DNA from: Rhodothermales bacterium
Lineage (GTDB): Bacteria; Bacteroidota; Rhodothermia; Rhodothermales; Bin80
Assembly (NCBI GenBank): GCA_965208025.1
Contig: OZ242302.1
Location: 3,280,727-3,344,726 of the forward strand
Length of the DNA: 64,000 nt
Direction: 5' to 3'
Every line of letters starts with the position of its first letter. Within the stretch, counting starts at the first letter, position 1. The translations under genes were made by a program, and so were the position numbers. Positions 8,441-57,916 of this stretch are shown here, piece by piece. The notes under the pieces are model-generated. The model ran no database searches. It was given only the letters and a program-made list of their open reading frames with translations, and was not told where the DNA came from.

Positions 8441-8442
8441 GA

Positions 8443-10105: not shown

Positions 10106-10116
10106 CCTATGCAAAA

Positions 10117-10132
10117 TTTAGTCTTGCCTAAA
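10117..10132. promoter_or_regulatory. Candidate metalloregulator (DtxR/MntR-type) operator just upstream of the metal importer operon
   Basis: Inverted repeat TTTAG-N6-CTAAA ('tttagtcttgcctaaa') lies 12-27 nt upstream of the binding-protein ATG. Its half-sites resemble the TTAG/CTAA half-sites of DtxR-family boxes. The arms are short, so support is weak. Confidence 0.2.
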
Positions 10133-10463
10133 ACTGCATAACCGCTGATCTGTTGCGTTTCAATCCCCCATTCATGAATCACTGATTGGATATCCTACTC
10201 CAATTAATACTCAACTCCCAATTTGGGCATTCTAACCACAGGAACAATTATTTTCAGCCACGCAGAACCTTGGAGTACGACGACCATCAGGACAACTTCG
10301 AATGGTCACATGTTGAACAAGGAGTGATTTCTGGATCAATTGATTGCCAGAGACCATACGTCATGTGGTTGGAGGTCTCCGAAGAGTTTGGCAGAAGAAT
10401 GGGTATGCAGGGATCCCCTACTCCATGGCAACGGGAATCATTTGAAAAGTACTTGCTAATGAA

Positions 10464-31818: not shown

Positions 31819-31994
31819 GGTATTCAGCTAAGAATTTTCCTGACGGTGAACCATGGAACGGTTCGGATTGAATGGAGGAGCAATAACATTATGGGGAGAC
31901 GGACTGCTTCCCTTTCAAACTGAATATTGATTGATGAAGTAGTGAAAGTGACCTGTGTGCAACTGTCATCCCATGTAAAGGAATGATCATTCAT

Positions 31995-34900
31995 ATGAAA
32001 TTGTTTAATTCTGAGAATCTCTGCAGGTCGTTGGGGTTCGTTGCAATGTTCATGATCCTCATCTTTCACTTGTATCTCCCACAGGCCAACGCTCAGCAAC
32101 CTGCCGCTTATCAGTCTGGCATGGTTGTAGTCCAGTTTGATTCTACCCGTCACATCACAGCAAAGTTAAATTGGAGAGGACTTGAGGGATTGGTTCGCAT
32201 CGCATCCAGATATGAGATCTACGAAATTGAGCGTGTATATCCGTTTCTTGATCATGTTGAGCCTACACCTGTACTCTGGAAGAATCTGATGGCTCTGCGG
32301 CGCACATACTATGTGCGATACCATTCAGATGCTGACCCAGTTGCGGTTTCCGTGAGTCTATTGAATGTTGCCGGGGTCGTATATGCGGAACCAGTTCCGA
32401 TTAACCGAATGCATATGGAGAGCCAGAGGGAGATCGTAGACCCCAACGATCCCAGATTTGGTTCTCAATCCGAACTCCGTCTGTTACGTATTCCCGAAGC
32501 CTGGGATGAGGTAAAGAGTGAATCCAGTACTCCAAAAGTAGTGATTGCTGTGATTGATGGAGGCGGAGAATGGCGACACGAAGACCTGCGAGCTAATGTA
32601 TGGACGAACGAGAATGAAATTCCTGAAAATGGGATTGATGATGACAATAATGGTTTCATTGATGATGTTCACGGAGTTGATTTTTCGGACGAGGATGATA
32701 CGGATAATGATCCAACCAGAGATCCTACGATCGGTAGTTCTGTGCATGGAACCGCAGCCGCAGGACTAGCGAGTGCGGTAACTGACAACCAGATTGGTAT
32801 CGCTGGGGCTTCCTGGAATGCTTCGTTGATGCACATCAATGCTGCTCATCCTTTAGGATTTGGCATTCAGTATGGATATGAGGGGATTCTTTATGCAGCC
32901 ATGAATGGTGCAGACATCATCAATGCAAGTTGGGGGGCAATCGTAAAAGCGAATCAAGAAGTGTTGTTTTTGGATCAGACATTAGAGTTAGCGACAGATT
33001 TAGGTGCCTTGGTGATCACTTCGGCAGGTAACGGGGATCTCAACAATGATTTGTTTCGGACCTATCCAGCCCGTCACCCGCGCGTCCTTTCGGTTGGTGC
33101 GACGGAAAAAGAGACCATAAGACGGGCAGAATTCTCAAACTATGGTAAGCTGGTTGATGTGTTTGCCCCTGGAGAATCAATCATTTCTACTGGAACAGAG
33201 AATGGCTACACCGAGGTTAGCGGAACTTCCTTTGCCGCTCCATTGGTCGCGGGAATCGCTGCACTCATAAAGACAAAATTTTCAAATATGTCTGCGGATG
33301 AACTACGGGAGACAATTAGGTTTTCAGCCGAGAGCATTGACGATCAGAACCCTGAGGATCGCCACTTACTTGGACGTGGCATTGTAAATGCACTTGCAGC
33401 AGTTCAGAAAGTGGAAACTCCAGCCATTCGTCTGAAGCATTGGTCTCTTGAAGATCATGACGGGAATCAACCAATTCAATCTGGAGATTTGGTCAGGATC
33501 AAGACCGTTTTCGTAAACTATCTCGCGGATGCATCGAACGTAATGGTGGAGTTCAGGGAGAGCCAACCCTACTCCTTTGTGGAATTGCTTCAGAGTGAGA
33601 CCCTCACGGATGATTGGAAAAGTGGAGAGGAAAAGGAGTTAAAATTTGAATTCCAGGTTTTTCCCGATGCCCCACTCAATCAGAGAGTTCGTTTCTTTTT
33701 CCATGTAAAGACAGGAGATACTGAGGATGTGGCAGATATGCTCACATTTGCAGTGAATCGTTCTTTTGAGGTCGTGTATCAGGGGCTAAACGCACTCTAT
33801 ACATCAACGAATGGTGATCATTGGAATGACAACAGCAATTGGGATTTTACTTCGGTTCCTGGTATAGAGGAGCTTGATCAATGGTACGGTGTCTCCACGA
33901 ATGAAGGTTGGCTGGAGCAGTTAAACCTAGGTCAAAATAATCTTACAGGTATCATTCCATCAGAAATTGTGGGACTCACAGAATTACAGGTGCTTTACTT
34001 ACCTGGCAACGATCTCACTGGATTGATTCCTGATGGATTCACGCGTCTCTCAGAACTGCGCGGGTTGCGCTTGGGGGATAATTCTCTTTCGGGCTCCATC
34101 CCTCAAGAACTTGGGAATCTGTCCAATCTGGAATGGCTAAGTCTCTTCAGAAACTCACTGACTGGTTCAATTCCGCCCTCAATTGGCAATCTATCAAATC
34201 TCAAACATCTGAATCTCGAATCGAATTCTCTATCTGGACCAATCCCTATGGAGCTTGGCAGCCTTTCAAGTCTAGAATGGCTTGGATTACGTGATAATTT
34301 TCTGACGGGATCAATTCCCCATGAATTTGGGGCTCTATCCAACGTATCTATCATTGATCTGGGAAAGAATTCTCTCTCTGGCTTGATCCCCAAAGAACTT
34401 GCGAATCTTCCAAAGCTTTCGTGGCTGGTAATACCAGAAAATTCTATATCTGGCACAATTCCTGGCGAACTTGGCAGGATCACTACGCTGGAATTATTGG
34501 ATTTGGAGGATAACTTGCTTTCAGGACAGATTCCAATCGAACTTGGAAACTTGGTTGCTTTGAAGCAGCTAAACTTATCAGCAAACACTTTATCTGGAGC
34601 GGTGCCCTCTGAATTAGGAAACCTACTCAAGTTGGAATCACTCTATCTTTCAGGTAATTCGCTGATGGGCACTCTTCCAAGAAGTCTAATGAAAATGGAA
34701 AACCTTCAAGTTCTCTGGTTTGATGGGCAGGAATTATGTGCACCTCAGGATGATGAATTTCAGGAATGGCTTCAAACCATTCCTGATGTAATTGGTCGGT
34801 CCTGTGGAGACTTGGCATTTGTATCTGATGTTGATGATCAGAACTACAAACTCGGTGTACCGATTCATCCATTGGTGCTTCCTGAAGTGATCGGAGGCAC

Positions 34901-35390
34901 TCAACCCGTTGAGTATTCACTTACTCCAGCATTGCCAGTGGGATTAAGTTTTCTGCCATCCACTCGTACGGTTTTTGGAACGCCTATGGCTACAACGGAT
35001 TCTCCGATTGAGTACATCTACAGCGCTACTGATGTGAATGGCGCAAAGGGTAGCTTGACGTTTGAAGTCAGTGTTTACTCTCCAGTTAATACAGAGCCTG
35101 AGGATTTGCCCCATACATTACAGGTGATAGGGAATTATCCCAATCCATTTCAAAATGAAACCCAACTCATATTCAATCTACCTTGGCAGGCAAATGTACA
35201 GGTAGAATTGATGGACTTGATTGGACGACATATTCTGACAATTCCAGAAAGGAGCATCTCCGCTGGATGGTCAAAAACAATCAATTTAAGTGGAGCCACT
35301 CTTCCCGCAGGATTTTATCTCTACCGTCTAATTGCCAATTCGTCCTCGGGTCGTTTCATTGAGGTTGGTCGGTTTGTGCGGACTCGTTGA
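31995..35390 (+). CDS. Secreted multidomain S8 (subtilisin-like) serine protease with a plant-type LRR array and a T9SS C-terminal sorting domain
   Basis: Signal peptide ending 'PQANAQQ'. Catalytic triad contexts 'VIAVIDGGGE' (Asp), 'SVHGTAAAG' (His), 'SGTSFAAPLVAG' (Ser). 11-12 LRRs of 24 aa each. C-terminus 'GNYPNPFQNETQLIFNLP...FYLYRLIAN' is T9SS CTD-like. Confidence 0.85.
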   Translation: MKLFNSENLCRSLGFVAMFMILIFHLYLPQANAQQPAAYQSGMVVVQFDSTRHITAKLNWRGLEGLVRIASRYEIYEIERVYPFLDHVEPTPVLWKNLMALRRTYYVRYHSDADPVAVSVSLLNVAGVVYAEPVPINRMHMESQREIVDPNDPRFGSQSELRLLRIPEAWDEVKSESSTPKVVIAVIDGGGEWRHEDLRANVWTNENEIPENGIDDDNNGFIDDVHGVDFSDEDDTDNDPTRDPTIGSSVHGTAAAGLASAVTDNQIGIAGASWNASLMHINAAHPLGFGIQYGYEGILYAAMNGADIINASWGAIVKANQEVLFLDQTLELATDLGALVITSAGNGDLNNDLFRTYPARHPRVLSVGATEKETIRRAEFSNYGKLVDVFAPGESIISTGTENGYTEVSGTSFAAPLVAGIAALIKTKFSNMSADELRETIRFSAESIDDQNPEDRHLLGRGIVNALAAVQKVETPAIRLKHWSLEDHDGNQPIQSGDLVRIKTVFVNYLADASNVMVEFRESQPYSFVELLQSETLTDDWKSGEEKELKFEFQVFPDAPLNQRVRFFFHVKTGDTEDVADMLTFAVNRSFEVVYQGLNALYTSTNGDHWNDNSNWDFTSVPGIEELDQWYGVSTNEGWLEQLNLGQNNLTGIIPSEIVGLTELQVLYLPGNDLTGLIPDGFTRLSELRGLRLGDNSLSGSIPQELGNLSNLEWLSLFRNSLTGSIPPSIGNLSNLKHLNLESNSLSGPIPMELGSLSSLEWLGLRDNFLTGSIPHEFGALSNVSIIDLGKNSLSGLIPKELANLPKLSWLVIPENSISGTIPGELGRITTLELLDLEDNLLSGQIPIELGNLVALKQLNLSANTLSGAVPSELGNLLKLESLYLSGNSLMGTLPRSLMKMENLQVLWFDGQELCAPQDDEFQEWLQTIPDVIGRSCGDLAFVSDVDDQNYKLGVPIHPLVLPEVIGGTQPVEYSLTPALPVGLSFLPSTRTVFGTPMATTDSPIEYIYSATDVNGAKGSLTFEVSVYSPVNTEPEDLPHTLQVIGNYPNPFQNETQLIFNLPWQANVQVELMDLIGRHILTIPERSISAGWSKTINLSGATLPAGFYLYRLIANSSSGRFIEVGRFVRTR
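33912..34730 (+). repeat. In-frame 72-nt periodic coding repeat (11-12 leucine-rich repeats of exactly 24 aa)
   Basis: The unit LxxLxLxxNxL(S/T)GxIPxELGxLxx repeats back to back, e.g. 'LEWLSLFRNSLTGSIPPSIGNLSN' and 'LKHLNLESNSLSGPIPMELGSLSS'. Confidence 0.8.
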
Positions 35391-37333: not shown

Positions 37334-37669
37334 TTACATGAATCCAAGTTCAAGTTTCGCCTCGTCACTCATCATCTCAATCGTGAAAGGAGGATCAAAC
37401 GTGAGCTCAACATGTGCATCGGTTACCCCCTCGGTGAGCATCACCACGGACTCAACCTGACTCGGGAGACTATCGGCTACTGGACAGTTGGGAGTTGTTA
37501 AGGTCATAGTCACAAATGCACGATCATCCTTATCAAGTTGGACCTTGTAGATTAGTCCCAGATCATACACATTGACTGGAATTTCAGGGTCATAGACCTG
37601 TCGGATGGATGCAATCACCTCATCAGCTAATCCTTTGGTCTTCGCATTGTCAATGACTTCGCAGTTCAT
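37334..37669 (-). CDS. sufT: SUF system Fe-S assembly protein (SufT/DUF59, MIP18 family)
   Basis: 'VYDPEIPVNVYDLGLIY ... MTLTTPNCPVADSL' is the DUF59 signature. It is the last gene of the suf operon, with a 4-nt overlap with sufS. Confidence 0.8.
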   Translation of the reverse strand: MNCEVIDNAKTKGLADEVIASIRQVYDPEIPVNVYDLGLIYKVQLDKDDRAFVTMTLTTPNCPVADSLPSQVESVVMLTEGVTDAHVELTFDPPFTIEMMSDEAKLELGFM

Positions 37670-39396
37670 ACGACTTCGGCAATAGAGGCTTCTTTCTGGA
37701 TGCGCTCAATCATTCGATTCAGTCCATTTTTTCGACGTGCAGTAATCAGACTTGGGAGACCTACTTCGTGGATCAGGGCAGGAAGGTCAGTCATGAGAAT
37801 CGTTTGGGGAGATTGTCCATTGAATAGCTGGATGAGCAGAGCAATCATTCCACGTGTAATGAGTGCGTCGCTGTCTGCTTCAAAATAGATTCTACCCTCC
37901 CGGATCGTACTGTGAAGCCAGACCATGGCTAAACAGCCATGAATTCGGTTTGTCTCTGTCTTAAGTGAAGCATCCAGTTCGGGAAGATTTTCTCCAAGTT
38001 CAATTAAATACTCGCGACGTTCGTCGTCGTCTTCAAATAGATTCAGATCCTCCATCAACAACGATTTACGACGATCAATAGACACATCACGGGATAAGGG
38101 AAGACTAACTCCATTGGAAGATGTGGATGCAGATGTTCTGATTGACTTGGGATTCGCAGAAATTTCGTTGATCCTTTCCACAAGTGCGTCCACATCATCT
38201 GTGGTATTGTAGGCACCAAACGAGGCACGAACGGTGCCAGAAATACCAAAATATTTCATGAGAGGCATGGCGCAATGATGTCCTGTTCTCACCGCAATCC
38301 CGGCCTGATCCAGAGCATAGCCCACATCATAGGGATGATGCCCATCCAGAAGGAAACTTAGAACGCCAACTTTTTTTGGAGCGGTTCCGACAACCGTGAG
38401 GCTTGGTATGGTTGAAACGTTTTCGTGAGCATAATCAAGAAGTGCTTCCTCTCTACGGTGCAGAACATCCATTCCAATGTTGTCAAGATAGTCAATCGCC
38501 GCTGCCATTCCAATCACACCAGCGATATTTGGAGTACCAGCCTCAAATTTATGAGGAAGTTCAGCCCATGTAGAGGATGTACGGTGTACTTCCTCAATCA
38601 TGTCACCCCCTCCATGCCAAGGGGGTAGATCTTCAAGAATTTCTTCTTTTCCATAGAGGAAACCCACTCCCGTCGGCCCGTATGCCTTATGACTGCCAGC
38701 ACAATAGAAATCGCACTCCAGACTCTGCATATCCAAGGGAAGGTGGGGTAACCCCTGAGCACCATCCAACAGAACAGCAATGTCCCGTTTATGTGCCTCG
38801 TAAATGATCTCCTCCACTGGATGAAGCGTGCCCAAACTGTTGGAAACATGCCCAATAGCAATGAGACGAGTACGTTGATTTACATGCCTGAACAGTACAT
38901 CAACGCTGATGGTGCCAGTCATGGATACATCCACGACACGTAACTGCGCACCGCACTCTTTTGCCAAGGTTTGCCATGGGACAAGATTTGAGTGGTGCTC
39001 CATGACGGTTGTTAAAATCTCATCGCCGCGGTGAATGCGCTGGCGACCATAGGTCGCGGCAACCAAGTTGATGGCTTCGGTCGTTCCACGAGTGAAAATA
39101 ATGGATCGTTCACTCGGAGCTCCAATGAACTGGGCTAAGCGTTTTCGAGCAGCCTCATAGCGCTCAGTCGCATGCTGGCTAAGGTAGTGTACCCCCCGGT
39201 GTACGTTGCTGTGTTCGTTGGTATAGTAATTGGCTATACAGTCAATCACACACTGAGGCTTTAGCGATGAAGCTGCACTATCCAAATAGACCAACGGATG
39301 GTCGTGCACTCGCTGACGCAGGGTTGGAAAGTCAGCCCTGATCTGGTGATCATCAATTTCGGTTAGATCTAGCATTGCGTGGGCGTCCCACATCAA
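37666..39396 (-). CDS. sufS: Cysteine desulfurase SufS fused to a C-terminal SufE sulfur-acceptor domain
   Basis: The SufS part carries the PLP-Lys context 'CAGSHKAYGPTG' and 'RTGHHCAMPL' (catalytic Cys loop). After a Ser/Thr-rich linker comes a SufE-like domain with 'NRIHGCLAMVWL' (conserved Cys) and 'ITARRKNGL'. Confidence 0.9.
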   Translation of the reverse strand: MMWDAHAMLDLTEIDDHQIRADFPTLRQRVHDHPLVYLDSAASSLKPQCVIDCIANYYTNEHSNVHRGVHYLSQHATERYEAARKRLAQFIGAPSERSIIFTRGTTEAINLVAATYGRQRIHRGDEILTTVMEHHSNLVPWQTLAKECGAQLRVVDVSMTGTISVDVLFRHVNQRTRLIAIGHVSNSLGTLHPVEEIIYEAHKRDIAVLLDGAQGLPHLPLDMQSLECDFYCAGSHKAYGPTGVGFLYGKEEILEDLPPWHGGGDMIEEVHRTSSTWAELPHKFEAGTPNIAGVIGMAAAIDYLDNIGMDVLHRREEALLDYAHENVSTIPSLTVVGTAPKKVGVLSFLLDGHHPYDVGYALDQAGIAVRTGHHCAMPLMKYFGISGTVRASFGAYNTTDDVDALVERINEISANPKSIRTSASTSSNGVSLPLSRDVSIDRRKSLLMEDLNLFEDDDERREYLIELGENLPELDASLKTETNRIHGCLAMVWLHSTIREGRIYFEADSDALITRGMIALLIQLFNGQSPQTILMTDLPALIHEVGLPSLITARRKNGLNRMIERIQKEASIAEVV

Positions 39397-43506: not shown

Positions 43507-44214
43507 ATGACGGTATTTGTTAATGGAGTGAGTTATCCCATTGATCCAGGCTTAATCAGTGGAGCCGTGCTGCATGAACTTGCTGGCCCGAATCTTCTGT
43601 ATAGTGTTGATGGTACAGTCATTCCTGTATTTTCAGAAGATTATCTACTTGTCCGTGGAGGGGAGAGGTTTATCCTTGAGAAAGGTAAAATCAAAGACAG
43701 TCCCTCTCTTCAGGATCCACTGAAGCCGAGTTTCAACGACGCCCAAGATGTTGCCCTGATCACCCCCAAAATAATTGCAAAAGATCTGAAGGCTTATGAT
43801 CCTGAATTTCCAGACGGTCGTTTATTTGCGGAAATATCCAAGGACCTAGATGTAGAAATCGGTGACGATCTACGACTCATTGTTCAGGCTAGTGATTCTT
43901 ATTTCGTCATTCCTCCAGGAGATTTTGGGGGAGTCATTGACATTGAAAAATGCGGAAGTCATGGTCGCAAAGTTCCCAAAGGTGGAATTTATCTGTATCG
44001 GCTTGACCATGGCTACCATAGATCAGAAGATCAGAAGATTAGAGGCACAGACATCTTGGCTCAGGCAGGCAAAAAAATTGAGGAGTGGTCTCTAAATCTG
44101 AAACTTAGCGGTGGCACGCGGATCAAGATTGATGAAGATTGGATTGATCTCACAAAATTAGGAAGTGAGCGGTTTGAATCCGTTCGTCGTCATGCGCAGC
44201 AGGGGGGTGAATGA
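43507..44214 (+). CDS. Poly-beta-grasp ubiquitin-like protein (Multiubiquitin-type), three tandem Ubl units, C-terminus ...QQGG-E
   Basis: Three internally similar ~60-80-aa units with anchors 'LISGAVLHELAG', 'ITPKIIAKDLKA' and 'IRGTDILAQAG'. Each is followed by an acidic 'D..(I/L/V)..' strand. Unit 2 ends 'GDFGG' and the protein ends 'HAQQGGE*'. Confidence 0.6.
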   Translation: MTVFVNGVSYPIDPGLISGAVLHELAGPNLLYSVDGTVIPVFSEDYLLVRGGERFILEKGKIKDSPSLQDPLKPSFNDAQDVALITPKIIAKDLKAYDPEFPDGRLFAEISKDLDVEIGDDLRLIVQASDSYFVIPPGDFGGVIDIEKCGSHGRKVPKGGIYLYRLDHGYHRSEDQKIRGTDILAQAGKKIEEWSLNLKLSGGTRIKIDEDWIDLTKLGSERFESVRRHAQQGGE

Positions 44215-44593
44215 TTTGATTGAACTCCCACCTGAAGATTCAGAGTACTTAGACGGTAACTATGAAAACCAATGGCGGATTATTTCTGACGGGGGTGCGA
44301 AGAGTGCATTATTAATAGAGAGTTTCCCCATTCCAAGTGGTTATGATCTTAGGACAACAACCCTCATGATTTTGATTCCAAGCGGTTACCCCGGGACATC
44401 TCTTGATATGTTCTATTTCAATCCTCCCTTAGTGAGGTCAGATGGTGCAGAGATTCCCTCCCTTACCAAAGAGTCACATTTTGATATAACGTGGCAACGT
44501 TGGTCACGCCACTATACATGGGAACCTAGTCGGGACTCTCTCACAGGGCATGTTGAGTTTGTAAAACGAAAACTCCACGATGAACTCCGATGA
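44192..44593 (+). CDS. Prokaryotic E2/UBC-like protein (Prok-E2_E-like), cysteine-free
   Basis: 'LPPEDSEYL ... IPSGYPGTSLDMFYFNPPL.RSDG..IP ... WQRWSRHY.W' matches my recollection of the bacterial E2 family E pattern. Start is uncertain (ATG 44192 or GTG 44207), and either one overlaps the Ubl gene end. The whole ORF contains no Cys. Confidence 0.55.
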   Translation: MRSRGVNDLIELPPEDSEYLDGNYENQWRIISDGGAKSALLIESFPIPSGYDLRTTTLMILIPSGYPGTSLDMFYFNPPLVRSDGAEIPSLTKESHFDITWQRWSRHYTWEPSRDSLTGHVEFVKRKLHDELR

Positions 44594-45987
44594 CCTTGAC
44601 CACGAGGAAGCTAACTCTGACGGCATCTTCCCACCTCTCTCTTGTGGATTATCTGTTTCCTGGAGATGGGTTAGAGGCAGTTGCAATTCTTATCTGTAAC
44701 TTGGGGAAAGGCCGGCTTGGAGAGCATCTGATTGTCAAGGATATAGTTTTTCCACCCTATGAGAGGTGTGAACGGTATCCAGATAAAGTAATTTGGCCGT
44801 TTGCCGAAATCGTACCCCCTAGCCTAATCAGTACAATTGACCGCGAGGGACAGTCACTGATCACAATTCATTCACATCCTTCGGGTGATGCATTTTTTTC
44901 GGCAATAGACGATGAGAATGATTACCAATTAATCACGTCTATTGCGGGTTGGTTTGATGATGCAAGGCCACATGGGACAGCAGTGATGCGATCAGATGGA
45001 ATGATGATCGCACGTGTACTGGATGAATCAGGAGAATTTAGAAATATTGAAGTCGTGGGTGTCGTGGGCGAAGAAATACAATTCTGGAAACGATTCGTTG
45101 AATCTCCCGAAAGAACATCCGAACTTAGGATTAAGCAGACATTTGGACAGGGAACGCTTGAGATGCTGAAGGGGATGCTGGTTGGAGTCGTGGGTTGTTC
45201 TGGCACTGGAAGCATAATGATTGAACTATTAGTTCGCAACGCGATCGGAGCGTTGGTCATCGTTGATGATGACTCCTTAGATGAATTAAATCTAAATCGG
45301 ATAATCAACGGTACATCTGAGGATGCACGATTGGGACGACCAAAGGTGCGAGCATTAGAAGAGGCAATTGAGCGGATTGGACTCGGAACGAATGTCTGTG
45401 CCTTTGAGGGACGCACGGATTCTGCTTCTGTTGTCAGGGCTTTGATTGATTGTGATGTGATCTTTGGGTGTATGGACACTGCCTTTGGACGTTATCACTT
45501 GGATTGCATTGCAAGTGCGTACTTAATCCCCTACTTTGATTTGGGGGTAGATTTGGTCGCGGATGGAGAGGGAGGAATCCAATCAGCTGATGCTGTATCT
45601 CATTATGTCCATCCAGATGGGACTAGTTTACTTTCTCGTATGGCCTATACCATGGATCAAGTGACATCGGAGATGTGGCACAGGGATGATGTGGAGCATC
45701 ACGAACGCCAGTGGCGTGCGGGGTATCTTGCGGCAGTTGATGAAAATCATCCTGCCGTCATATCAGTGAACATGCAGGCAGCTTGTCTGGCATTCAATGA
45801 TTTTTTGGCTCGGATCTCAAATTTCCGGCTTGATTCGAATGGTGAATTCACGACTCAACGGTTTAGACTGGTTCATGGCTCATTTGAGAATGATACCGCA
45901 AAAGGGGAACCACATGATTTATTAAAACCATACGTAGCTTCTGGAGACAAAAGCCTACTCGTCAGAAACAATACTTCTTATGCATAG
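44590..45987 (+). CDS. JAB/JAMM deubiquitinase-like metalloprotease fused to a ThiF/E1-like adenylating enzyme
   Basis: JAMM motif 'HSHPSGDAFFSAID' (HxHx7Sx2D) with an upstream Glu ('GLEAVAIL'). E1 Rossmann 'VGVVGCSGTGSIMIELL...LVIVDDDSLDELNLNRI' and 'VIFGCMDTAFGRYHLD'. ATGA overlap with the E2-like gene. Confidence 0.8.
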   Translation: MTLTTRKLTLTASSHLSLVDYLFPGDGLEAVAILICNLGKGRLGEHLIVKDIVFPPYERCERYPDKVIWPFAEIVPPSLISTIDREGQSLITIHSHPSGDAFFSAIDDENDYQLITSIAGWFDDARPHGTAVMRSDGMMIARVLDESGEFRNIEVVGVVGEEIQFWKRFVESPERTSELRIKQTFGQGTLEMLKGMLVGVVGCSGTGSIMIELLVRNAIGALVIVDDDSLDELNLNRIINGTSEDARLGRPKVRALEEAIERIGLGTNVCAFEGRTDSASVVRALIDCDVIFGCMDTAFGRYHLDCIASAYLIPYFDLGVDLVADGEGGIQSADAVSHYVHPDGTSLLSRMAYTMDQVTSEMWHRDDVEHHERQWRAGYLAAVDENHPAVISVNMQAACLAFNDFLARISNFRLDSNGEFTTQRFRLVHGSFENDTAKGEPHDLLKPYVASGDKSLLVRNNTSYA

Positions 45988-46341
45988 GTTGCCAGATTCT
46001 TTTTGGGTATCCTGTCTCAATTGCATCCTTACCAGACCGAGTACATTCAAGATTTACATCTATATGTTAAACTCAATACGATCTGTATCATCGGAGAACA
46101 TGCCCTCCTCATTGTATTCAGCAATTGTCTGTCCGATGTATCGAAGTAAGAAAGTTGTCCATTTAGATTTATCTGTTGTAAGTACCACTGGAAGATCACA
46201 GAGATTCCAATGGCCGTGTATCACTTCTGCCATCAGTGCGTGGATCCGAATTGAAATGCAATTACCAGTATAGATTCCGATGTGGATATTGTATTGTCTG
46301 TATCAAACCGCCCATGTTTTAAGTTTCCAAGGTGAACCGAT

Positions 46342-47949
46342 ATGATTGAGCGAATAGAAATACGCAATGTCATGCGTTTCCGTGAGTTGAACTGCGAACT
46401 GGAGAAGCATCTTCTAATTGTTGGACCAAATAATTGTGGCAAGACGACGCTTCTCCAAGTGATCGCACTATGGTCAGAAATTGCAGCATACTGGTCGAGA
46501 AACAATCCCGATTTAGCTAGAGACAGCAATGGTGATTATTCGAGCACTGCATTGAATTTATTGAGAACATCCTCAATTCTTTTATCTGACTGGAATCATT
46601 TATGGTATGATAAAAATGTTACATCTCCAGCCTCAATCCGACTACAAATTGCAGGTAGACGACTTGGTTTTGAGTTGATCTATAAGGGGCGGGAAATTGT
46701 AGATGTTCGACCAACTTCGGATGTATTGGAGTCCGTTCTGGAATGGTATCTTGACAATCCTATCATCCCAGTTTACATTCCATCAATGTCAGGAGTGGAT
46801 AGGGAAGAACCTAACTATGATCCTGGGGTCATTCCAGCAAGACTCTCAAGAGGACAGGCTGGGACGGTGCTCCGAAATATTCTTTTGGATGTCAGCACCG
46901 ACTCCGATAGATGGCAACAGCTAAGCAATGTTGTATCCGATCTTTTCGGGAGCGAGTTGATGATGCCAAGTGGAGGCGCCGAGATATTTGCAGAGTATCG
47001 GGAGAGTCCTTCAAAATTAGGCTTAGACTATTGCAGTGGTGGTTCCGGGTTTCTTCAGATCGTAATGATATATGCGACCATTTTCTGGAGAACACAATCT
47101 GTGATTCTAATTGATGAGCCAGACGCTCATCTACACTTGTTCTTACAAGACAGACTCTATGGTGATCTCAAGCGACGCGCCAAACACCATGGATGGCAGT
47201 TGATCATTGCAACTCATTCGCAGCAACTCATTAATCAGGCTACTACCAGTGATATAAGGATATTATCAAATGATCTGAACAGGATATCAGATCGCAGAGT
47301 CGTTGCAGAGTCATTGCGATTGGACAATATAGATTTACTGCTCGCTCAGAAATCAAAATGTGTTTTATATCTGGAGGGATGGACAGATAAGGAAATATTA
47401 TGGAAGTGGGCACAGATTCTGGGCCACCCAATCTTGCAACATTTGGATAAACTTCTCTATAAATTCACTGCAGAGGAAAGCCGCCGTTCTACGCGACATT
47501 TTGGGGCAGTACAAGCTCATGTTCCTGCATTGAAAGGGGTTGAGTTATTGGATAGGAACAATAAAGGCACCAGTGCGGATTCTAAATCGTATCCTGAGGG
47601 CATGAAGCTTTTAGTTTGGAGTCGGTATGAGATAGAAAATTATCTAATCCATCCTGCTGCAATACTTCGGTGGCTCACCTCAAGAGGTGGGAAGGATGCA
47701 GCTGACAGGGCCAATCATTACATGAAAAACTATTTTCCACCGGCTCTACATTTGAATCCATTGGAGATGGATTTTCATGAGGGTGTCAAGGGGAAGCAGG
47801 TAATTGACAGAATTGTTGATGCTGCACAAATTCAAATTGATAGGTCAGAGTACGCTGAGATTGCAGGCGGGATGCTGAAAGAAGAGATTCATTCAGAAGT
47901 GATTGAGAAGCTAGACCTGATATTCGATCATTTGAATCTTGTAAACTAG
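46342..47949 (+). CDS. ABC-type (AAA_15/21-like) ATPase fused to a DUF4435/Toprim-like domain. PARIS-like (fused AriA-AriB) or OLD-family defence nuclease candidate
   Basis: Walker A 'GPNNCGKTT', signature-like 'CSGGSGFLQI', Walker B 'VILIDEPDAHLH', H-loop 'IIATHS'. C-terminal 'CVLYLEGWTDKEIL' and 'SRYEIENYLIHP' resemble DUF4435/Toprim motifs. Confidence 0.65.
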   Translation: MIERIEIRNVMRFRELNCELEKHLLIVGPNNCGKTTLLQVIALWSEIAAYWSRNNPDLARDSNGDYSSTALNLLRTSSILLSDWNHLWYDKNVTSPASIRLQIAGRRLGFELIYKGREIVDVRPTSDVLESVLEWYLDNPIIPVYIPSMSGVDREEPNYDPGVIPARLSRGQAGTVLRNILLDVSTDSDRWQQLSNVVSDLFGSELMMPSGGAEIFAEYRESPSKLGLDYCSGGSGFLQIVMIYATIFWRTQSVILIDEPDAHLHLFLQDRLYGDLKRRAKHHGWQLIIATHSQQLINQATTSDIRILSNDLNRISDRRVVAESLRLDNIDLLLAQKSKCVLYLEGWTDKEILWKWAQILGHPILQHLDKLLYKFTAEESRRSTRHFGAVQAHVPALKGVELLDRNNKGTSADSKSYPEGMKLLVWSRYEIENYLIHPAAILRWLTSRGGKDAADRANHYMKNYFPPALHLNPLEMDFHEGVKGKQVIDRIVDAAQIQIDRSEYAEIAGGMLKEEIHSEVIEKLDLIFDHLNLVN

Positions 47950-51129: not shown

Positions 51130-52968
51130 ATGATGGGATCGTACGATGAAAATCAAACAGAATCCGTTAATGGTGGATCTATCACGATCACCGAGAACAA
51201 ACTACTGGATATTCTTAAGAAGAATGCTCCAGAGGCATTCACCGAGGATAAGATTGATTGGGAAAAATTTCGAGCTACCTTAGGTGGTAACGTTGAATTC
51301 AGTGAGGAACGCTACCATCTAAATTGGGCTGGCAAAGCCAATGTATTTCGTATGCTTCAAAGGCCTACCAATGCTACTCTTAGACCATGTCGAGAAGAAT
51401 CAATCAAATTTGACACTAGTAGCAATTTATTTATTGAGGGCGAGAATTTGGAAGTGCTTAAAATTCTCCAGAAGCCATATTTCGGTAAAGTCAAGATGAT
51501 CTATATTGATCCGCCCTATAACACTGGGAACGACCAATTTATTTATCCAGACAGCTTTGCTGAGAATAAAAATGCTTATCTAAAACACATCGGTAAAAAG
51601 GATGAACAAGGACATAGTATCCGAGAGGGGATATTCCAAAAAAACAATCGGGAGAATGGCCATTTTCACTCCAATTGGCTCAGCATGATATACCCACGAC
51701 TTTACATGGCCAGAAATCTCCTGCGAGATGATGGAGTGATTTTTGTCTCCATTGACGACAATGAAGTTCATAATTTGCGTCTTGTGATGAATGAAATTTT
51801 TGGGGAGGATAATTTTATCGCATGCTTCGCTTGGAGGAGAACAGACAATCAGTCAAATATTGGAAATGTAGCCAGAATCAAGGAATATATTTTGTGCTAT
51901 GCCAAAGTTGGTTCTTCTCTTCGTTTGAACAAAATGAAATTATCTGAGAGAGCACGGAAAGAGTATAGATATTCTGATGATAAAGGCAAATATAGAAGAT
52001 CAATTCTCCATCATAAAACAAGAGGTCGGTTCCACTATCAAGTCGTTGCCCCAAATGGAAATACAGTAAATGGTCCATGGATGGTTGACGAATCCGAATT
52101 CAAAAAACTCTTAAATAATGATGGGATCCATTGGGCAGGGAAAGGACATCAACACCCTTATGGGAAAATCTATCTTAAAGAGTCTAAGGGTCAAATTACG
52201 AGCGACTTTTTAGGCCTTGAGTTTGGATCTAATCAGCAAGGAAGTATTGAATTGGAGAGGTTATTTGGTGCAAGATATTTCGATTTTCCAAAACCGGTAA
52301 GTTTGGTCAAACATTTTATAACTATTGGAACGAATGACGATGATATAGTGATGGATTTCTTTGCTGGGTCATGCACCACTGCCCATGCAGTCCTTCAACT
52401 CAACTCTGAGGAAAAGGCTAATCGTAGATTTATTTGTATCCAAATGCCAGAATTATGTGACGGTGGATCCAGAGCTGGAAAAGAAGCCCTGAAAGCATGC
52501 TTCAATACTATTGCTGATATAGGGAAAGAACGTATTCGTAAGGTTCTAATTAATTCTGATCTTCGAGACGGGTTCAAAGTTTTCACACTTCAAAAATCCA
52601 ACTTCAAAACATGGCGAGGTGAGGATATACGCACGCAACAAGATCTTGAAAAACAACTTGAAATCCATATCACGCCACTTATTGAAAATGCGGATACTGA
52701 GCATGTCCTCTATGAGTTATTACTCAAATCGGGCTTGCCTTTGACTTCCAAAATTGAAGACAGGGGCAAGTGGTTTAAGGCCGAGTATCTTAACACTCTC
52801 ATTGCTTTTGCTTTGAACGACATTGATGAGGTTATAGTTAATGAGGTCGTTGCAGAAAGCCCACAAAAATTTATTGCTCTGGATCATTTATTCCAGAATA
52901 ATGATCAACTCAAAACCAATACTTCCTTGCGGATGGAAGATTCTGGAATAGAGTTTGAGACAGTTTGA
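51130..52968 (+). CDS. mod: Type III restriction-modification methyltransferase (Mod, beta-class N6A/N4C MTase)
   Basis: Motif IV 'IYIDPPYNTGND' precedes motif I 'DFFAGSCTTAHA'. The N-terminal 'YHLNWAGK' and 'LFIEGENLEVLK' are typical of Mod. It lies directly upstream of res. Confidence 0.9.
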   Translation: MMGSYDENQTESVNGGSITITENKLLDILKKNAPEAFTEDKIDWEKFRATLGGNVEFSEERYHLNWAGKANVFRMLQRPTNATLRPCREESIKFDTSSNLFIEGENLEVLKILQKPYFGKVKMIYIDPPYNTGNDQFIYPDSFAENKNAYLKHIGKKDEQGHSIREGIFQKNNRENGHFHSNWLSMIYPRLYMARNLLRDDGVIFVSIDDNEVHNLRLVMNEIFGEDNFIACFAWRRTDNQSNIGNVARIKEYILCYAKVGSSLRLNKMKLSERARKEYRYSDDKGKYRRSILHHKTRGRFHYQVVAPNGNTVNGPWMVDESEFKKLLNNDGIHWAGKGHQHPYGKIYLKESKGQITSDFLGLEFGSNQQGSIELERLFGARYFDFPKPVSLVKHFITIGTNDDDIVMDFFAGSCTTAHAVLQLNSEEKANRRFICIQMPELCDGGSRAGKEALKACFNTIADIGKERIRKVLINSDLRDGFKVFTLQKSNFKTWRGEDIRTQQDLEKQLEIHITPLIENADTEHVLYELLLKSGLPLTSKIEDRGKWFKAEYLNTLIAFALNDIDEVIVNEVVAESPQKFIALDHLFQNNDQLKTNTSLRMEDSGIEFETV

Positions 52969-53021: not shown

Positions 53022-55702
53022 ATGGTATGTCTTCATTTTGATTCAAACCAACAATACCAACTGGATGCAATCCATGCGGTCTTGCGTATTTTTAAGGGGC
53101 AGCCTGTGAAGAGCAGCAATACATTTTCTTCACACAATGCTGGGGAGTTAATAGCTGAAACAGGCTTTGCCAATCGTTTGTATATCAATGAAAAACAAAT
53201 CCTTCGGAATGTTCAGGACATTCAAAAAGAAGCACACGAAAACAAGAGACAGGTCAGAAGAAAATATGAAAAATGGGCAGTTTCCGAGTATCTTGACGGA
53301 ATGCACTTCTCTGTGGAGATGGAAACTGGCACAGGAAAAACGTATGTTTATTTACGCACGATCTATGAATTGAACTTCAATTATGGCTTCCGAAAGTTTG
53401 TCATTGTCGTTCCTTCAATCGCAATTCGGGAGGGGGTTCTGAAAAATCTGACAATTACCAGTTCTCACTTGCAAAACTTGTATAACCGTCCGCCGACCCA
53501 TTATCAAGTCTACGATTCCAGTAGGGTTGCTAACCTGAGGTCATTTGCTCTAAGCGATGCAATTGAAATTCTAGTCATCAACATAGATTCGTTTGCGAAA
53601 GACAAAAACATAATCAACCGCCCCAATGATAAATTAATGGGGAATAAGCCCATTGATTTTATCAAACGTGCAAACCCAATAGTTATTCTGGACGAGCCGC
53701 AGAATATGGAAACAGATATTCGCAGAAATGCCATCCAGAATTTGAACTATCTCTGTACTTTGCGCTACTCGGCTACTCATACCAAGAGATATAATTTGAT
53801 TTATAGCCTTGATCCCGTTCAGGCTTATGATCTGAACTTAGTAAAACAAATCGAAGTCAGTTCCGTTGTCTCTAAGAATGATTTTAACGCTGGGTATGTG
53901 CGATTGAAGAAAATCAACACTGCACGTTCCTTATCGGCCTCTATTGAAATAGATTGTAACACGCGGAACGGTGTGAAAAGGCAATCAATTACTGTACGTG
54001 TTGGGGATGACTTATTCGCTGCTTCAGGGAAAAGAGAGGTATACAGAAACAACTATATTGTGAATGAAATTAATGCGGAAAAAGGTAGTATCGTATTGTC
54101 TGGGGGCAGGCAATTATCAGTTGGTGAAAGGATTGGCGGACTGAATGACGATATAATGCGAGCTCAGATCTATGAGACTGTTTCCGAGCATTTTAGCAAG
54201 GAGAAGCGGTTAAACGGGATAAAAGTAATTTCCCTATTTTTTATCGACCGAGTGGCAAATTATCGTACCTACGATGTGGAGGGTAATCCTGTCAAGGGAA
54301 AATTTGTAGAGTATTTTGAGGAAGCATTCAACCATTATTCAAATATGGAGGAATATAGGGGAGTGATTCCGTTTGAGGTGGAAGAAGTCCACGACGGATA
54401 TTTTTCTCAAGACAGAAACAGGTGGAAAGATACCAGAGGCAACACCCGTGCAGACAATAAGACATATGAGTTGATCATGCGAGAAAAGGAGCGCTTACTG
54501 GACACGCACGAACCTTTACGCTTCATTTTCAGTCACTCTACGCTTCGAGAGGGTTGGGACAATCCGAATGTATTTCAAATATGTACACTGAATGAAACAC
54601 ACTCTGAGTTAAAGAAACGCCAAGAGATAGGTAGAGGGATGCGATTGGCAGTGGGCAGTGACGGCAAGCGTATATGGGATAGAAATGTGAACCTGTTAAC
54701 AGTAATTGCAAATGAGAGCTACGAAGATTTTGCTCGCCAGTTGCAGAATGAAATTGAGGATGAATGTGGGGTCATGTTTGAAAACCGGACAAAAAATAAA
54801 CGAGAAAGAGTGAGCATACGATACCGTAAGGGATTTCAGTTGGATGAAAATTTCAAGGCGTTATGGGACAGGATTAAATTTAAAACTGTCTATCGCGTTG
54901 AGTACGATACGGATGAATTAATTAGCCGTGCGATAGAGTCGGTGAAAAATATGGATGTTGTAACAAAGCCAATGCTCCAGATTGAGAAAGGGGCATTGGA
55001 TTTGACAGATGAAGGGGTCAAACATCAGGTGAAAAAAACTTATAAATCCCCCAGAGAGAGAGATGATTTTTTTATTCCAGATATTCTATCCTACATTCAG
55101 GATCATTCTCATACCAGACTCACACGTTCTACGATTTATCAAATACTGTCGGGTTCTGGGAGAATAGGCGAAATTCTGATTAATCCTCAATTATTTGGAG
55201 ATATGGTTGTTGACGCAATCCGTAATGCACTGACAGACCTGATGGTTAGAGGAATCAAATATGAAAAAATCTTGAAGAAGAATTTGAACTGAAATTATTT
55301 AAAGAGTATGAGTTTCACAGCAACGAACATACCTTTAGGATTAACAACCCGGACAAAACTATTAATTCCAGTCTGATTCCACTTGATTCTGGCGTAGAGA
55401 GCCAGTTCGCTCGGGACTGCGAAAGTAGGGAAGATATTGAATTCTATATCAAGCTTCCCCACTGGTTCAAAATTAAGACACCCATCGGTAACTATAATCC
55501 AGATTGGGCTCTCATTAAAAAGGAGGAGAAGGTTGTATATTTCATTGCCGAGACCAAGTCACAGGGACAAGAATTAAAGGTGAGCGAAAGATTCAAGATA
55601 GCATGTGGAGAAGCAAATTGTAATGCACTGGAGAATGTTGATTTTCGGCATGTCTCATCTGTTAGTGATTTAGATGAGTCAGGTAGCTTTCGCCACAAAT
55701 AG
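53022..55702 (+). pseudogene. res: Type III restriction enzyme Res subunit (SF2 helicase + C-terminal PD-(D/E)xK nuclease), interrupted by a -1 frameshift in an A6 tract
   Basis: Helicase motifs 'METGTGKTYVY' and 'VILDEPQNM'. The frame-0 ORF stops at 55292. The nuclease-domain sequence 'PLDSGVESQFARDCE...NYNPDWALI...VYFIAETK' continues in another frame from 55265 to 55702. One extra A in the A6 run at 55264-55269 would give a single ~893-aa ORF. Confidence 0.85.
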
Positions 55703-57118: not shown

Positions 57119-57916
57119 TTAGGAAGTGGGAGATTCAGGTCCTTCGCTCGCGTTTTCTTGTCGCCGTTGGGCTACTTCTAACCGATAACTCGGCAGATGA
57201 AGCTCTAAGACCACACAATGATGCACCAATCGGTCCACGGCGGCGGTTGCGTGCATTGGATCATAAAAGATGCTCTCCCATTGCGAGAAGGGCAGGTGGC
57301 TGGTCAGGAGCACGCTCTTGCGCTCATAGCACGCAGCCAAAAACTGGAACAGGGCTTCCATCTCTTCCCGACTATGCTTCACATAACCCAGTCCATCAAT
57401 GAGAATCCCATCAAAGCGTAGCAACTGCTGAATGAAGGGTTGGAGTCCTTGCTCCTGTTTTGCACGAAGTAACGCGTCAACCAGCGCATCCGAGGGGTAA
57501 AAGATCAATCGCCGTCCCAGATAAATCAATTCTTGCCCCAGTGCGCACATCAGATGCGTCTTTCCGCTCCCCGTAGGGCCCAGCACCAGCACATTCTCGT
57601 TCCGATCCAGAAAGCCACCTTCCAGTAGCCTGCGCAACTGATGATCCAGCTTCAACGGTAACCGCGTTCGCTCAAACGAAGCCAACGTTTTGGATAAGGG
57701 CAGCTGAGAAGCCCGTAGAGCGCGCTGAATACGGTTGTGAGTACGTGATTGCTGTTCCTGCTCAATCAACGTCAGCAAAAAGTGCTCAAAACTCATAGAT
57801 TCACGACGGGCAAGGTCTGCCGCTTCATGGAGCGCCATGCGAATGCCCGGCATCCGTAACGACCGGAGTCCACGTTCAATCCCTCGCTCCAAGTCCTTTG
57901 AGGATTTGTTGTTCAT
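57119..57916 (-). CDS. istB: IS21 helper ATPase IstB
   Basis: Walker A 'GPTGSGKTHL', Walker B-like 'ILIDGLGY', IstB N-terminal 'SFEHFLLTLIEQE'. The start is placed at the Met at 57916, overlapping the istA stop. Confidence 0.9.
   Translation of the reverse strand: MNNKSSKDLERGIERGLRSLRMPGIRMALHEAADLARRESMSFEHFLLTLIEQEQQSRTHNRIQRALRASQLPLSKTLASFERTRLPLKLDHQLRRLLEGGFLDRNENVLVLGPTGSGKTHLMCALGQELIYLGRRLIFYPSDALVDALLRAKQEQGLQPFIQQLLRFDGILIDGLGYVKHSREEMEALFQFLAACYERKSVLLTSHLPFSQWESIFYDPMHATAAVDRLVHHCVVLELHLPSYRLEVAQRRQENASEGPESPTS

Follow-up and report, generated by a model that had tools for sequence, protein, structure and literature searches.

The locus analyzed here raises the question of how a protein-conjugation module could work when its E2-like protein contains no cysteine and its E1 lacks one where a catalytic thioester would be expected. 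It lies in a window of 64,000 nucleotides, the whole stretch of Rhodothermales DNA that was analyzed, and all of its genes are on the forward strand. The first three are bubA (43507..44214), encoding a 235-aa ubiquitin-like protein (Ubl) with three β-grasp domains (Ubl3 or "multi-ubiquitin"), bubB (44207..44593), encoding the Cys-free E2-like protein (Prok-E2_E), and bubCD (44590..45987), encoding a 465-aa protein in which a JAB/JAMM peptidase is fused to an E1 adenylation domain. These genes are close homologues of those for the crystallized Citrobacter Type I Bub (bacterial ubiquitination-like, formerly "6E"/DUF6527) proteins BubCD, BubB, and the triple β-grasp BubA. Every published Bub catalytic residue is kept, namely Tyr379 of the E1, Ser105, His107, and Asp72 of the E2, the JAMM motif, and Arg237 and Asp296 of the adenylation site, and the same cassette is found in 83 loci from many phyla. 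Homology, collinearity, and conservation of all catalytic residues are what sequence comparison provides for the window locus, and we infer the operation of the relay there from the Citrobacter structures and mutants, the two E1 proteins being 36% identical. The locus is very probably a Type I-like Bub conjugation module that would work without catalytic cysteines, through the published Tyr-to-Ser oxyester relay. The missing cysteines are thus real, but are already explained in the literature. A cysteine-free ubiquitin-like cascade is remarkable chemistry that was described for Bub operons in 2024–2026; the core chemistry is known, the window locus adds no new principle to it, and its gene organization is a modest new variant. 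The natural variation that it contributes consists of separate bubA and bubB genes, the loss of bubE, and an accompanying OLD/PARIS-like ATPase.

The claim of the earlier note that the E2-like ORF lacks Cys codons altogether is borne out for all three candidate starts (GTG 44165, ATG 44192, and GTG 44207). The probable start is GTG 44207, which gives a protein of 128 aa, the length also of a 95%-identical homologue (P0001), and an 8-nt overlap with the bubA stop; residues are numbered here from ATG 44192. At about 130 aa, a protein without cysteine is no surprise by itself, because 92 of 211 homologous E2 domains have none either. The informative point is the pattern across the family: in the alignment of these 211 domains, Cys never exceeds 7% of the sequences in any column. 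BubB matches Pfam PF14462 (E=1.8e-29) and Citrobacter BubB (9EAE_C, E=1.5e-21), with the motif QRWSRH aligned and S105, H107, and D72 corresponding to S333, H335, and D299. The AF2 model of BubB (pLDDT 90) superimposes on 9EAE_C with TM scores of 0.87/0.90 and an rmsd of 1.4 Å. The proposed active site is made up of Asp72 (44405–44407), Ser105 (44504–44506), and His107 (44510–44512), each of which is conserved in 210 of the 211 domains. Foldseek comparison of BubB with canonical E2s and RWD domains gave non-significant matches, and PADLOC (2023) has no model for BubA or BubB. In a separate comparison by hhalign, the BubB family gave only a weak match to human UBE2D2, in the region of the YP...P motif (probability ~1%, E=0.054), which is uninformative on the equivalence of Ser and Cys.

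In BubCD, Pfam places Prok-JAB at aa 18–115 and ThiF at aa 183–319, and alignment to Citrobacter BubCD (9EA4; E=5e-71, aa 6–428) shows that the E1 domain reaches C-terminal of the ThiF match. The same alignment locates the JAMM residues E29 (44674–44676) and H94/H96/S104/D107 (44869–44910) and the adenylation residues R237 (45298–45300) and D296 (45475–45477). The Citrobacter residues E28/H91/H93/D104/R227 map to E29/H94/H96/D107/R237 and are fully conserved; across the family, the JAMM and adenylation residues are present in 195–196 of 196 homologues. Cysteines occur only at residues 36, 60, 203, 270, 288, 294, 306, and 399, with none between 307 and 398, and after C294 of the FGC motif the sole cysteines are those of LDC (C306) and AAC (C399), exactly as had been stated. 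The stretch named in the earlier note as the expected site of the catalytic Cys, DLVADGEGGIQSADAVSHYVHPDG (45550..45621, aa 321–344), is indeed Cys-free, but it is a β-hairpin that aligns with Citrobacter BubCD 312–328, which buttresses the bound Ubl (bioRxiv 10.1101/2024.11.21.623953), and not the crossover loop. The real loop, YTMDQVTSEMWHRDDVEHHERQWRAGYLAAVDEN (45646..45747, aa 353–386; Citrobacter 347–377 in the 9EA4 alignment), is also devoid of cysteine. Only 8 of the 196 E1 homologues have a Cys anywhere in aa 345–392, and the positions involved are not conserved. The headline claim, that no thioester relay is present, was right, the E2 and the E1 crossover loop lacking a conserved cysteine across homologues. 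The proposed catalytic residue of the loop is Tyr379 (codon 45724–45726), which corresponds to Citrobacter Y370 and is Tyr in 195/196 homologues; a second loop tyrosine, Y353 at the loop start, is nearly as conserved (194/196).

Two ways in which a catalytic cysteine might have been overlooked were considered and rejected. An existing E1 cysteine is not a credible candidate: C306, in the HLDCIA segment singled out beforehand, and C399 are Arg and Ser, respectively, in the active Citrobacter enzyme, and the only family-invariant cysteines are C36 of the JAB domain and C294 of the C-x-D motif in the adenylation core. Neither does a frameshift or sequencing error hide one, as both the E1 and E2 ORFs are full-length and collinear with their crystallized homologues. 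An E1 sequence identical to that of the window is also present as a public protein entry (P0062); a search for contigs encoding this entry returned none.

BubA was placed by fold search, since the sequence searches failed to place it: Multi_ubiq scored 15.6 bits in Pfam, below the cut-off of 24.5, NCBIfam gave no match, and a direct sequence search of the PDB was without result. The AF2 model (pLDDT 89, pTM 0.84) has as its best Foldseek matches in the PDB the Citrobacter multi-ubiquitin 9D5A (E=5e-10) and the Escherichia coli Ubl3 9CD2, and its C-terminal domain superimposes on BubA(155–229) of 9EA8_B with a TMt of 0.76 and an rmsd of 1.8 Å. Homologues of BubA carry PF14452. The conserved C-terminal Gly233 (codon 44203–44205) is part of the motif ERFESVRRHAQQG, and two more residues, GE, form the tail after it; AQQG is invariant in the BubA alignment (A3) and across loci, followed by a variable tail. 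In some relatives the encoded BubA ends exactly at the glycine equivalent to Gly233.

By analogy with Citrobacter, conjugation at the window locus would begin with the JAMM domain of BubCD trimming the two residues after Gly233. The exposed C-terminus would then be adenylated by the E1 domain, involving Arg237, Asp296, and the glycine-rich loop, and the acyl-adenylate would be attacked by Tyr379 on the flexible crossover loop, giving a BubA~Tyr oxyester. BubA would next be passed to Ser105 of BubB, activated by His107 and Asp72, and finally to a lysine of the target protein, forming an isopeptide bond. For the Citrobacter homologue the steps from adenylation onward were shown by structures and mutants (Ye et al., bioRxiv 10.1101/2024.11.21.623953). 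In that work, BubCD cut after the conserved glycine of BubA, the products were Lys-linked conjugates, and both E1 Y370F and the E2 S333A/H335A double mutant abolished conjugation of BubA, both in vitro and in cells. The authors describe S333 of BubB as occupying the structural position of the catalytic Cys in other E2s. A BubA–BubCD adduct still formed with Y370F, and the oxyester intermediates were deduced from mutants and structures and were not trapped directly (bioRxiv 10.1101/2024.11.21.623953).

The last of these points, together with the absence of Cys from the E2 and from the E1 loop, is compatible with the alternative that BubB is an inert, UEV/RWD-like adaptor and that the E1 acyl-adenylate is resolved directly by the target amine without covalent enzyme intermediates. 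An adaptor role also agrees with the 2006 annotation of the "6e" operons, in which Iyer, Burroughs & Aravind predicted the E2 to be inactive, ubiquitin-binding, and RWD-like (PMC1779556), a view that is overturned by the later experiments assigning a catalytic Ser. UEV and RWD proteins have the UBC fold with the catalytic residue lost and no conserved nucleophile, whereas the E2 family analyzed here has Ser in 210 of 211 domains; such conservation, shared by His107 and Asp72, is not expected of a passive adaptor. Ser105 moreover aligns with the very Citrobacter serine reported at the catalytic-Cys position, and the Citrobacter S333A/H335A and Y370F mutations abolish conjugation while leaving the adenylation-site residues untouched. 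The adaptor reading, raised in the earlier note, is accordingly not the best supported one and we regard it as very unlikely. Because Ser105, His107, and Asp72 are conserved and the Citrobacter mutants abolish conjugation, BubB is, with high likelihood, predicted to be a catalytic carrier in a relay that proceeds via oxyesters.

The genomic surroundings had suggested another possibility, a MoeB/ThiF-style sulfur-carrier system tied to the suf/iscA Fe-S genes, in which adenylation of BubA would be followed by its thiocarboxylation. The E1 does have a ThiF-family adenylation domain, BubA ends in Gly-Gly-Glu, and iscA is found 92 nt upstream in the same orientation, with sufBCD-S/E next to it. 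However, among 85 loci the suf/iscA adjacency is restricted to the window and L001, L004/L005, and L013, and is absent in the other ~80. As these four are close Rhodothermales relatives from three distinct genomes (L004 and L005 share one contig), the adjacency reflects the insertion site. The window E1 scores only 37–63 bits against NCBIfam ThiF and MoeB models with cut-offs of 159–647 overall (63.3 bits for ThiF, cut-off 159; 37–45 bits for MoeB, cut-offs 266–633, the best MoeB score of 45 bits facing cut-offs of 266–449). Rather than a small single-domain ThiS/MoaD protein ending in Gly-Gly, BubA is a 235-aa triple β-grasp protein, and Pfam found no rhodanese domain in the three proteins. 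Neither the conserved E2 nor the intact JAMM peptidase would serve any purpose in sulfur transfer; together with the ancestral BubE protease they fit protein conjugation, and the homologous Citrobacter system makes Lys-linked conjugates. The sulfur-carrier reading thus fails and appears exceedingly improbable. What the window does have in common with ThiF/MoeB-ThiS/MoaD and with UBA5 is the homodimeric-type Rossmann adenylation domain with its core C-x-D motif (C294/D296); it differs from them in the Cys-free crossover loop, the E2 and peptidases, the multidomain Ubl, and the scores below cut-off.

Returning to the Bub oxyester reading, the nearest known system is the Type I Bub operon of Citrobacter sp. 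RHBSTW-00271 (BubAB, BubCD, BubE; Ye, Gong, Chambers & Corbett; PDB 9EA4, 9EA8, 9EAE, 9EAV). The two share a JAB-E1 fusion, a Cys-free crossover loop with a conserved Tyr, an E2 site of Ser-x-His and Asp, a triple β-grasp Ubl with a conserved C-terminal Gly, and an identical gene order; the three domains and terminal glycine of the window BubA also fall within the range of Type I Ubls, which have one to three β-grasp domains. In contrast to the Citrobacter operon, the window carries an ABC ATPase gene downstream, and directly upstream it has iscA instead of a CapW, CapH/CapP, or CapK/CapS regulator. Type II Bub (E. coli ZDHYS365; BubA, the E2-E1 fusion BubBD, and BubE) resembles the window in its Cys-free chemistry, with a loop Tyr and an E2 Ser, and in its Ubl3-type Ubl, but has its E2 fused to the E1, no JAB domain, and a Ser accompanied by Lys and His rather than His and Asp. 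The "6e" polyUbl operons (PMC1779556), represented in Pfam by Prok-E2_E, Multi_ubiq, and Prok-JAB, likewise combine a polyUbl and a JAB-E1 fusion with a UBC-fold protein lacking Cys and with "Y", a metal-binding protein that is probably the later DUF6527/BubE. Bil (bacterial ISG15-like) and Type II CBASS Cap2/Cap3 are also bacterial conjugation systems with E1, E2, and JAB peptidase in a defense-island context, but they rely on catalytic cysteines of the canonical kind and on thioester intermediates. The window locus has none of the cysteines of a canonical thioester cascade, whether at the E2 site or in the crossover loop or Cys domain of the E1, and its E1 matches the PADLOC "E1-E2" (Cap2-type) models via the adenylation core only.

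The published definition of Type I differs from the window locus in three respects, the third being the conserved downstream ATPase. [quoted passage not shown] A G6 homopolymer is located at the bubA/bubB junction. A BubAB fusion hidden by a frameshift or sequencing error was rejected, as many genomes share the split junction (it is seen in about 42 of 83 related loci, and also in L005 and L007), which occurs in two different relative frames. Separate genes would make the precursor-splitting role of the JAB domain largely dispensable. A scan for σ70 promoters and terminators gave background level only.

The second difference is the lack of an intact DUF6527/PF20137 Ser-His protease. What is left of bubE (45980..46346) is a pseudogene of three collinear fragments, each in a different reading frame, with a stop codon inside. 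Gln stands in place of the catalytic His, and two of the Zn-binding cysteines are missing. In tblastn searches with seven intact BubE proteins of relatives, the fragments were found at 45994–46095 (aa 3–36), 46070/46115–46174 (aa 30/43–62), and 46188/46206–46346 (aa 71–120), with combined E values that vary with the query from 1e-9 to 2e-13, and a profile search recovered the same fragments; the ORF at 45980–46273 has no Pfam match. Intact bubE occupies exactly this position in 72 of 83 related loci, and judged from the sequence the dedicated deconjugating protease has decayed in the window lineage. This loss, the G6 run, and the ATPase gene of relative L001, broken by an ISL3 transposase gene, would be in keeping with an operon that is a decaying, non-functional remnant, with bubE loss as the first step of degradation. 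Against this, bubA, bubB, bubCD, and the ATPase gene are intact with all catalytic residues kept, and dN/dS relative to the closest relative is 0.12–0.22 for bubA, bubB, and bubCD, which indicates purifying selection. Moreover, E1 and E2 ORFs are detected in all 11 loci without bubE, the window included, nine of which keep the ATPase, and the split bubA/bubB arrangement is common and maintained in both relative frames. General decay of the operon is therefore unlikely.

No Bub operon has yet been shown in the literature to protect against phage or to have any other biological effect, and for that reason the conserved, co-operonic downstream partner (46342..47949, 535 aa) is a concrete lead to the output of the pathway. 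After bubE or bubCD, a homologue of this ATPase is present in 51 of 83 loci (about 60%), and its association with Bub operons is not mentioned in the Bub papers covered. The conservation of an OLD/PARIS-like ATPase suggests a defense or stress-response cassette. We further consider, as a possibility that is rather doubtful, that the window represents an undescribed Bub subtype with separate bubA and bubB, in which the ATPase with a putative Toprim-like nuclease domain would be an integral fifth gene and the module would stay functional after BubE loss, and which would be frequent among Rhodothermales, Latescibacterota, and other lineages that are mostly uncultured and apparently sponge-associated. 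If so, this ATPase might supply the sensor or effector that is missing from Bub systems, with Ubl conjugation either regulating the ATPase-nuclease or being triggered by it.

The ABC ATPase core, with Walker A/B and signature region, is of the OLD/GajA/PtuA/AriA type (Pfam AAA_21/AAA_15, both present in 25/25 homologues), as shared by the OLD family, Gabija GajA, Septu and retron PtuA, and PARIS AriA(B). A PDB profile search matched OLD 6P74 (E=1e-14), PtuA, GajA, and AriA through this core only, and the whole protein matched PADLOC AriAB with E=2e-22. The C-terminal half has no Pfam match, Toprim and DUF4435 included, and alone gives weak PADLOC matches to AriAB (E=4e-4) and AriB (E=0.02). 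The C-terminal domain is nonetheless conserved, with invariant acidic residues E345, D349, D404, E430, and E432 (alignment A4), and these motifs resemble those of Toprim/DUF4435 proteins, so that the domain is possibly a Toprim/DUF4435-like nuclease.

Three tightly packed genes on the forward strand of the window encode the proteins of a Bub (bacterial ubiquitination-like) operon, a class described by Ye, Gong, Chambers and Corbett and known earlier as '6E' or 'DUF6527' (bioRxiv 10.1101/2024.11.21.623953). The first, bubA (43507-44214, +), encodes a 235-aa protein without a significant Pfam match, although PF14452 Multi_ubiq is found in its homologues. Its model (pLDDT 89) resembles the 'multi-ubiquitin' Ubl3 structures 9D5A (Citrobacter, E=5e-10) and 9CD2 (E. 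coli), and the last domain superposes on BubA(155-229) in 9EA8_B with a TMt of 0.76 and an rmsd of 1.8 Å. The second, the E2-like bubB (+, ending at 44593, with candidate starts GTG 44165, ATG 44192 and GTG 44207), matches Pfam Prok-E2_E (PF14462, E=1.8e-29) and, in a PDB sequence search, Citrobacter BubB 9EAE_C (E=1.5e-21), on which its AF2 model (pLDDT 90) superposes with TM 0.87/0.90 and an rmsd of 1.4 Å. The third, bubCD (44590-45987, +), encodes a 465-aa JAB-E1 protein with Pfam Prok-JAB plus ThiF domains, and matches Citrobacter BubCD 9EA4 in the same search with E=5e-71.

An earlier note had proposed from the sequence that this module has no thioester relay, and the cysteine absence behind that proposal is real and family-wide. 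The E2-like ORF contains no Cys whichever of the three starts is used, and the JAB-E1 protein has eight in all, at residues 36, 60, 203, 270, 288, 294, 306 and 399, as had been described. The E1 region singled out as the Cys-free catalytic site (aa 321-344) is indeed Cys-free, but it is not the crossover loop: alignment and numbering conversion place it at Citrobacter BubCD 312-328, a beta-hairpin buttressing the bound Ubl (Ye et al., bioRxiv 10.1101/2024.11.21.623953). The crossover loop lies at aa 353-386 (nt 45646-45747; Citrobacter 347-377) and also lacks Cys. The homologue alignment that the note had called for covers 211 E2 domains and 196 E1 homologues and shows the absence to be a family trait. 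At every column of the E2 alignment Cys occurs in ≤7% of sequences, with 92 of the 211 domains containing none, and any Cys at aa 345-392 of the E1 is restricted to 8 of 196 homologues, at scattered positions. In the E1 family as a whole, with Citrobacter counted, only two cysteines are invariant: C36 of the JAB domain and C294 of the 'C-x-D' motif in the adenylation core. C306 ('HLDCIA') and C399 ('AACLAF') were considered as catalytic residues and rejected, being Arg and Ser, respectively, in the active Citrobacter enzyme. Nor does a frameshift conceal a Cys, since each protein is collinear with its crystallised homologue along almost all of its length and an E1 sequence identical to that of the window is present in a public protein collection (P0062). 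The missing thioester relay is the property that defines Bub systems and has already been published, so the central finding is not new.

In the Citrobacter system, the BubCD JAMM domain cuts the BubAB precursor after a conserved Gly, the E1 crossover loop is without Cys and has Tyr370 as its sole invariant residue, and BubB carries, where other E2s have their catalytic Cys, an invariant Ser333, together with His335 and Asp299. Both Y370F and S333A/H335A abolished conjugation, in E. coli as well as in vitro, and from these results Ye et al. conclude a Tyr and Ser oxyester relay, with the oxyester chemistry drawn from mutants and structures rather than from trapped intermediates (bioRxiv 10.1101/2024.11.21.623953). 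The window retains the corresponding residues: E29, H94, H96, S104 and D107 of the JAMM domain, R237 and D296 for adenylation, and Y379 in the crossover loop. BubB keeps D72, S105 and H107 (numbered from ATG 44192) and the invariant motif 'WQRWSRH', and the C-terminus of BubA is the family-invariant 'ERFE[ST]V..AQQG' plus a final 'GE'. The E1 catalytic residues are conserved in 195-196 of 196 homologues, and D72, S105 and H107 are each found in 210 of the 211 E2 domains. Compared with L005, the Rhodothermales MAG that is the closest relative, dN/dS is 0.22 for bubA, 0.12 for bubB and 0.13 for bubCD. On the basis of this homology, the conserved catalytic residues and the dN/dS range of 0.12-0.22, the window module very probably follows the published mechanism, the homology and residue conservation being observed in the window itself and the chemistry carried over from Citrobacter. 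The JAMM domain would trim BubA after Gly233, adenylation would follow, and BubA would then pass as an oxyester to Tyr379, as a second oxyester to Ser105 and finally to a target lysine.

The earlier note had offered two other ways of reading a Cys-free module. The E2-like protein could act as a UEV-like adaptor, as such operons were viewed in 2006 (Iyer et al., PMC1779556); both the nearly invariant Ser/His/Asp site and the mutant data contradict this. Alternatively, the module could be a sulfur-carrier system, a reading based on its neighbours. Upstream of the bub genes are an iscA-like gene, transcribed in the same direction, and, on the opposite strand, sufB, sufC, sufD and a sufS-sufE fusion. 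Among 85 loci compared, suf/iscA homologues flank the module solely in the window and in its close Rhodothermales relatives L001, L004/L005 (one contig) and L013, which share its insertion site. A sulfur-carrier E1 was rejected on ThiF and MoeB family model scores far under the cut-offs, and a sulfur-carrier Ubl on the triple beta-grasp form of BubA; sulfur transfer has no use for an E2 or a JAMM peptidase. Within the sufBCD-S/E cluster, the SufS cysteine desulfurase and SufE domain share a single 576-aa ORF (37666-39396, -), the Pfam domains being read from its L004 orthologue.

The locus is best classed as a variant of Type I Bub in which bubA and bubB are split, bubE has decayed and an OLD/PARIS-like ATPase is the partner. 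According to Ye et al., every Type I operon encodes a BubA-BubB fusion (bioRxiv 10.1101/2024.11.21.623953), whereas bubA and bubB are separate ORFs in the window. The bubA stop (44212-44214) overlaps GTG 44207 by 8 nt, and this GTG is the likely bubB start, in agreement with a 95%-identical homologue of 128 aa (P0001). About half of the 83 related loci have the split arrangement, often with an identical 8-nt overlap, the split and fused counts being approximate because ORFs were called mechanically. A G homopolymer spans the junction (window 44202-44214; L005 5995-6010), with G6 in the window and G7 in L005; the relative frame differs, and two overlapping ORFs are kept in each. Indels, or switches between a fused and a split form, may be favoured at this junction. 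In L001 and L013, BubA ends precisely at the conserved Gly.

Also in contrast to published Type I operons, bubE (DUF6527/PF20137) is a pseudogene in the window (45980-46346, +): the 354 nt separating bubCD from the ATPase gene contain three collinear fragments, each in a different frame, and an internal stop. Seven intact BubE queries gave combined tblastn E values of 1e-9 to 2e-13; the remnant has Gln in place of the catalytic His and has lost two zinc-binding Cys. L005 shows the same fragment pattern in a region 99.4% nucleotide-identical to the window. Intact bubE occupies the equivalent position in 72 of the 83 loci, and 9 of the 11 bubE-less loci, window included, retain the ATPase.

The ATPase gene (46342-47949, +; 535 aa, Pfam AAA_15/AAA_21) has an ABC-type core like those of OLD, GajA, PtuA and AriA. 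Its C-terminal domain, possibly a nuclease of the Toprim/DUF4435 kind, has invariant acidic residues (E345, D349, D404, E430 and E432; 'YLEGWTD', 'YEIENYL') and a weak PADLOC match to PARIS AriAB/AriB. An ATPase homologue lies directly 3' of bubE or bubCD in 51 of the 83 Bub-like loci, a set gathered by similarity to the window E2 and hence biased, with the ATPase-linked loci as the closest relatives; the predicted ORFs usually overlap. The word 'ATPase' is absent from the text of Ye et al. (bioRxiv 10.1101/2024.11.21.623953), and this association is the sole lead from the locus worth following. In L001, a 71%-identical relative, the Bub-linked ATPase gene is in two fragments with an ISL3-family transposase gene between them (7697-10653).

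Downstream of the bub genes lie a type III restriction-modification pair, comprising an N6_N4 DNA methylase (51130-52968, +; 612 aa) and a ResIII/DEAD helicase-type subunit (53022-55292, +; 756 aa), and a Mu-type transposase with an rve integrase core plus Mu-transpos_C_2 (57913-59445, -). This arrangement fits a defence-island setting, and the transposase suggests a mobile element beside a defence-like region. No Cap-type regulator is found upstream of the window operon, and no phage protection by a Bub operon had been shown in the literature as of 2026. At the place equivalent to the restriction-modification pair, L001 and L004 carry other methylase or GmrSD genes. The closest cassette relatives (L005-L063) are almost all MAGs, from Rhodothermales, Latescibacterota, Poriferihabitans, Aestuariivita, Nitrospira 'SB06xx' bins and similar groups, and many of the source MAGs look sponge-associated. 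This suggests horizontal spread of the cassette inside one habitat. Elsewhere in the window, a 1135-aa protein (31983-35390, +) joins a subtilase domain to leucine-rich repeats and an Ig-like domain, and has a Por (T9SS) secretion tail.
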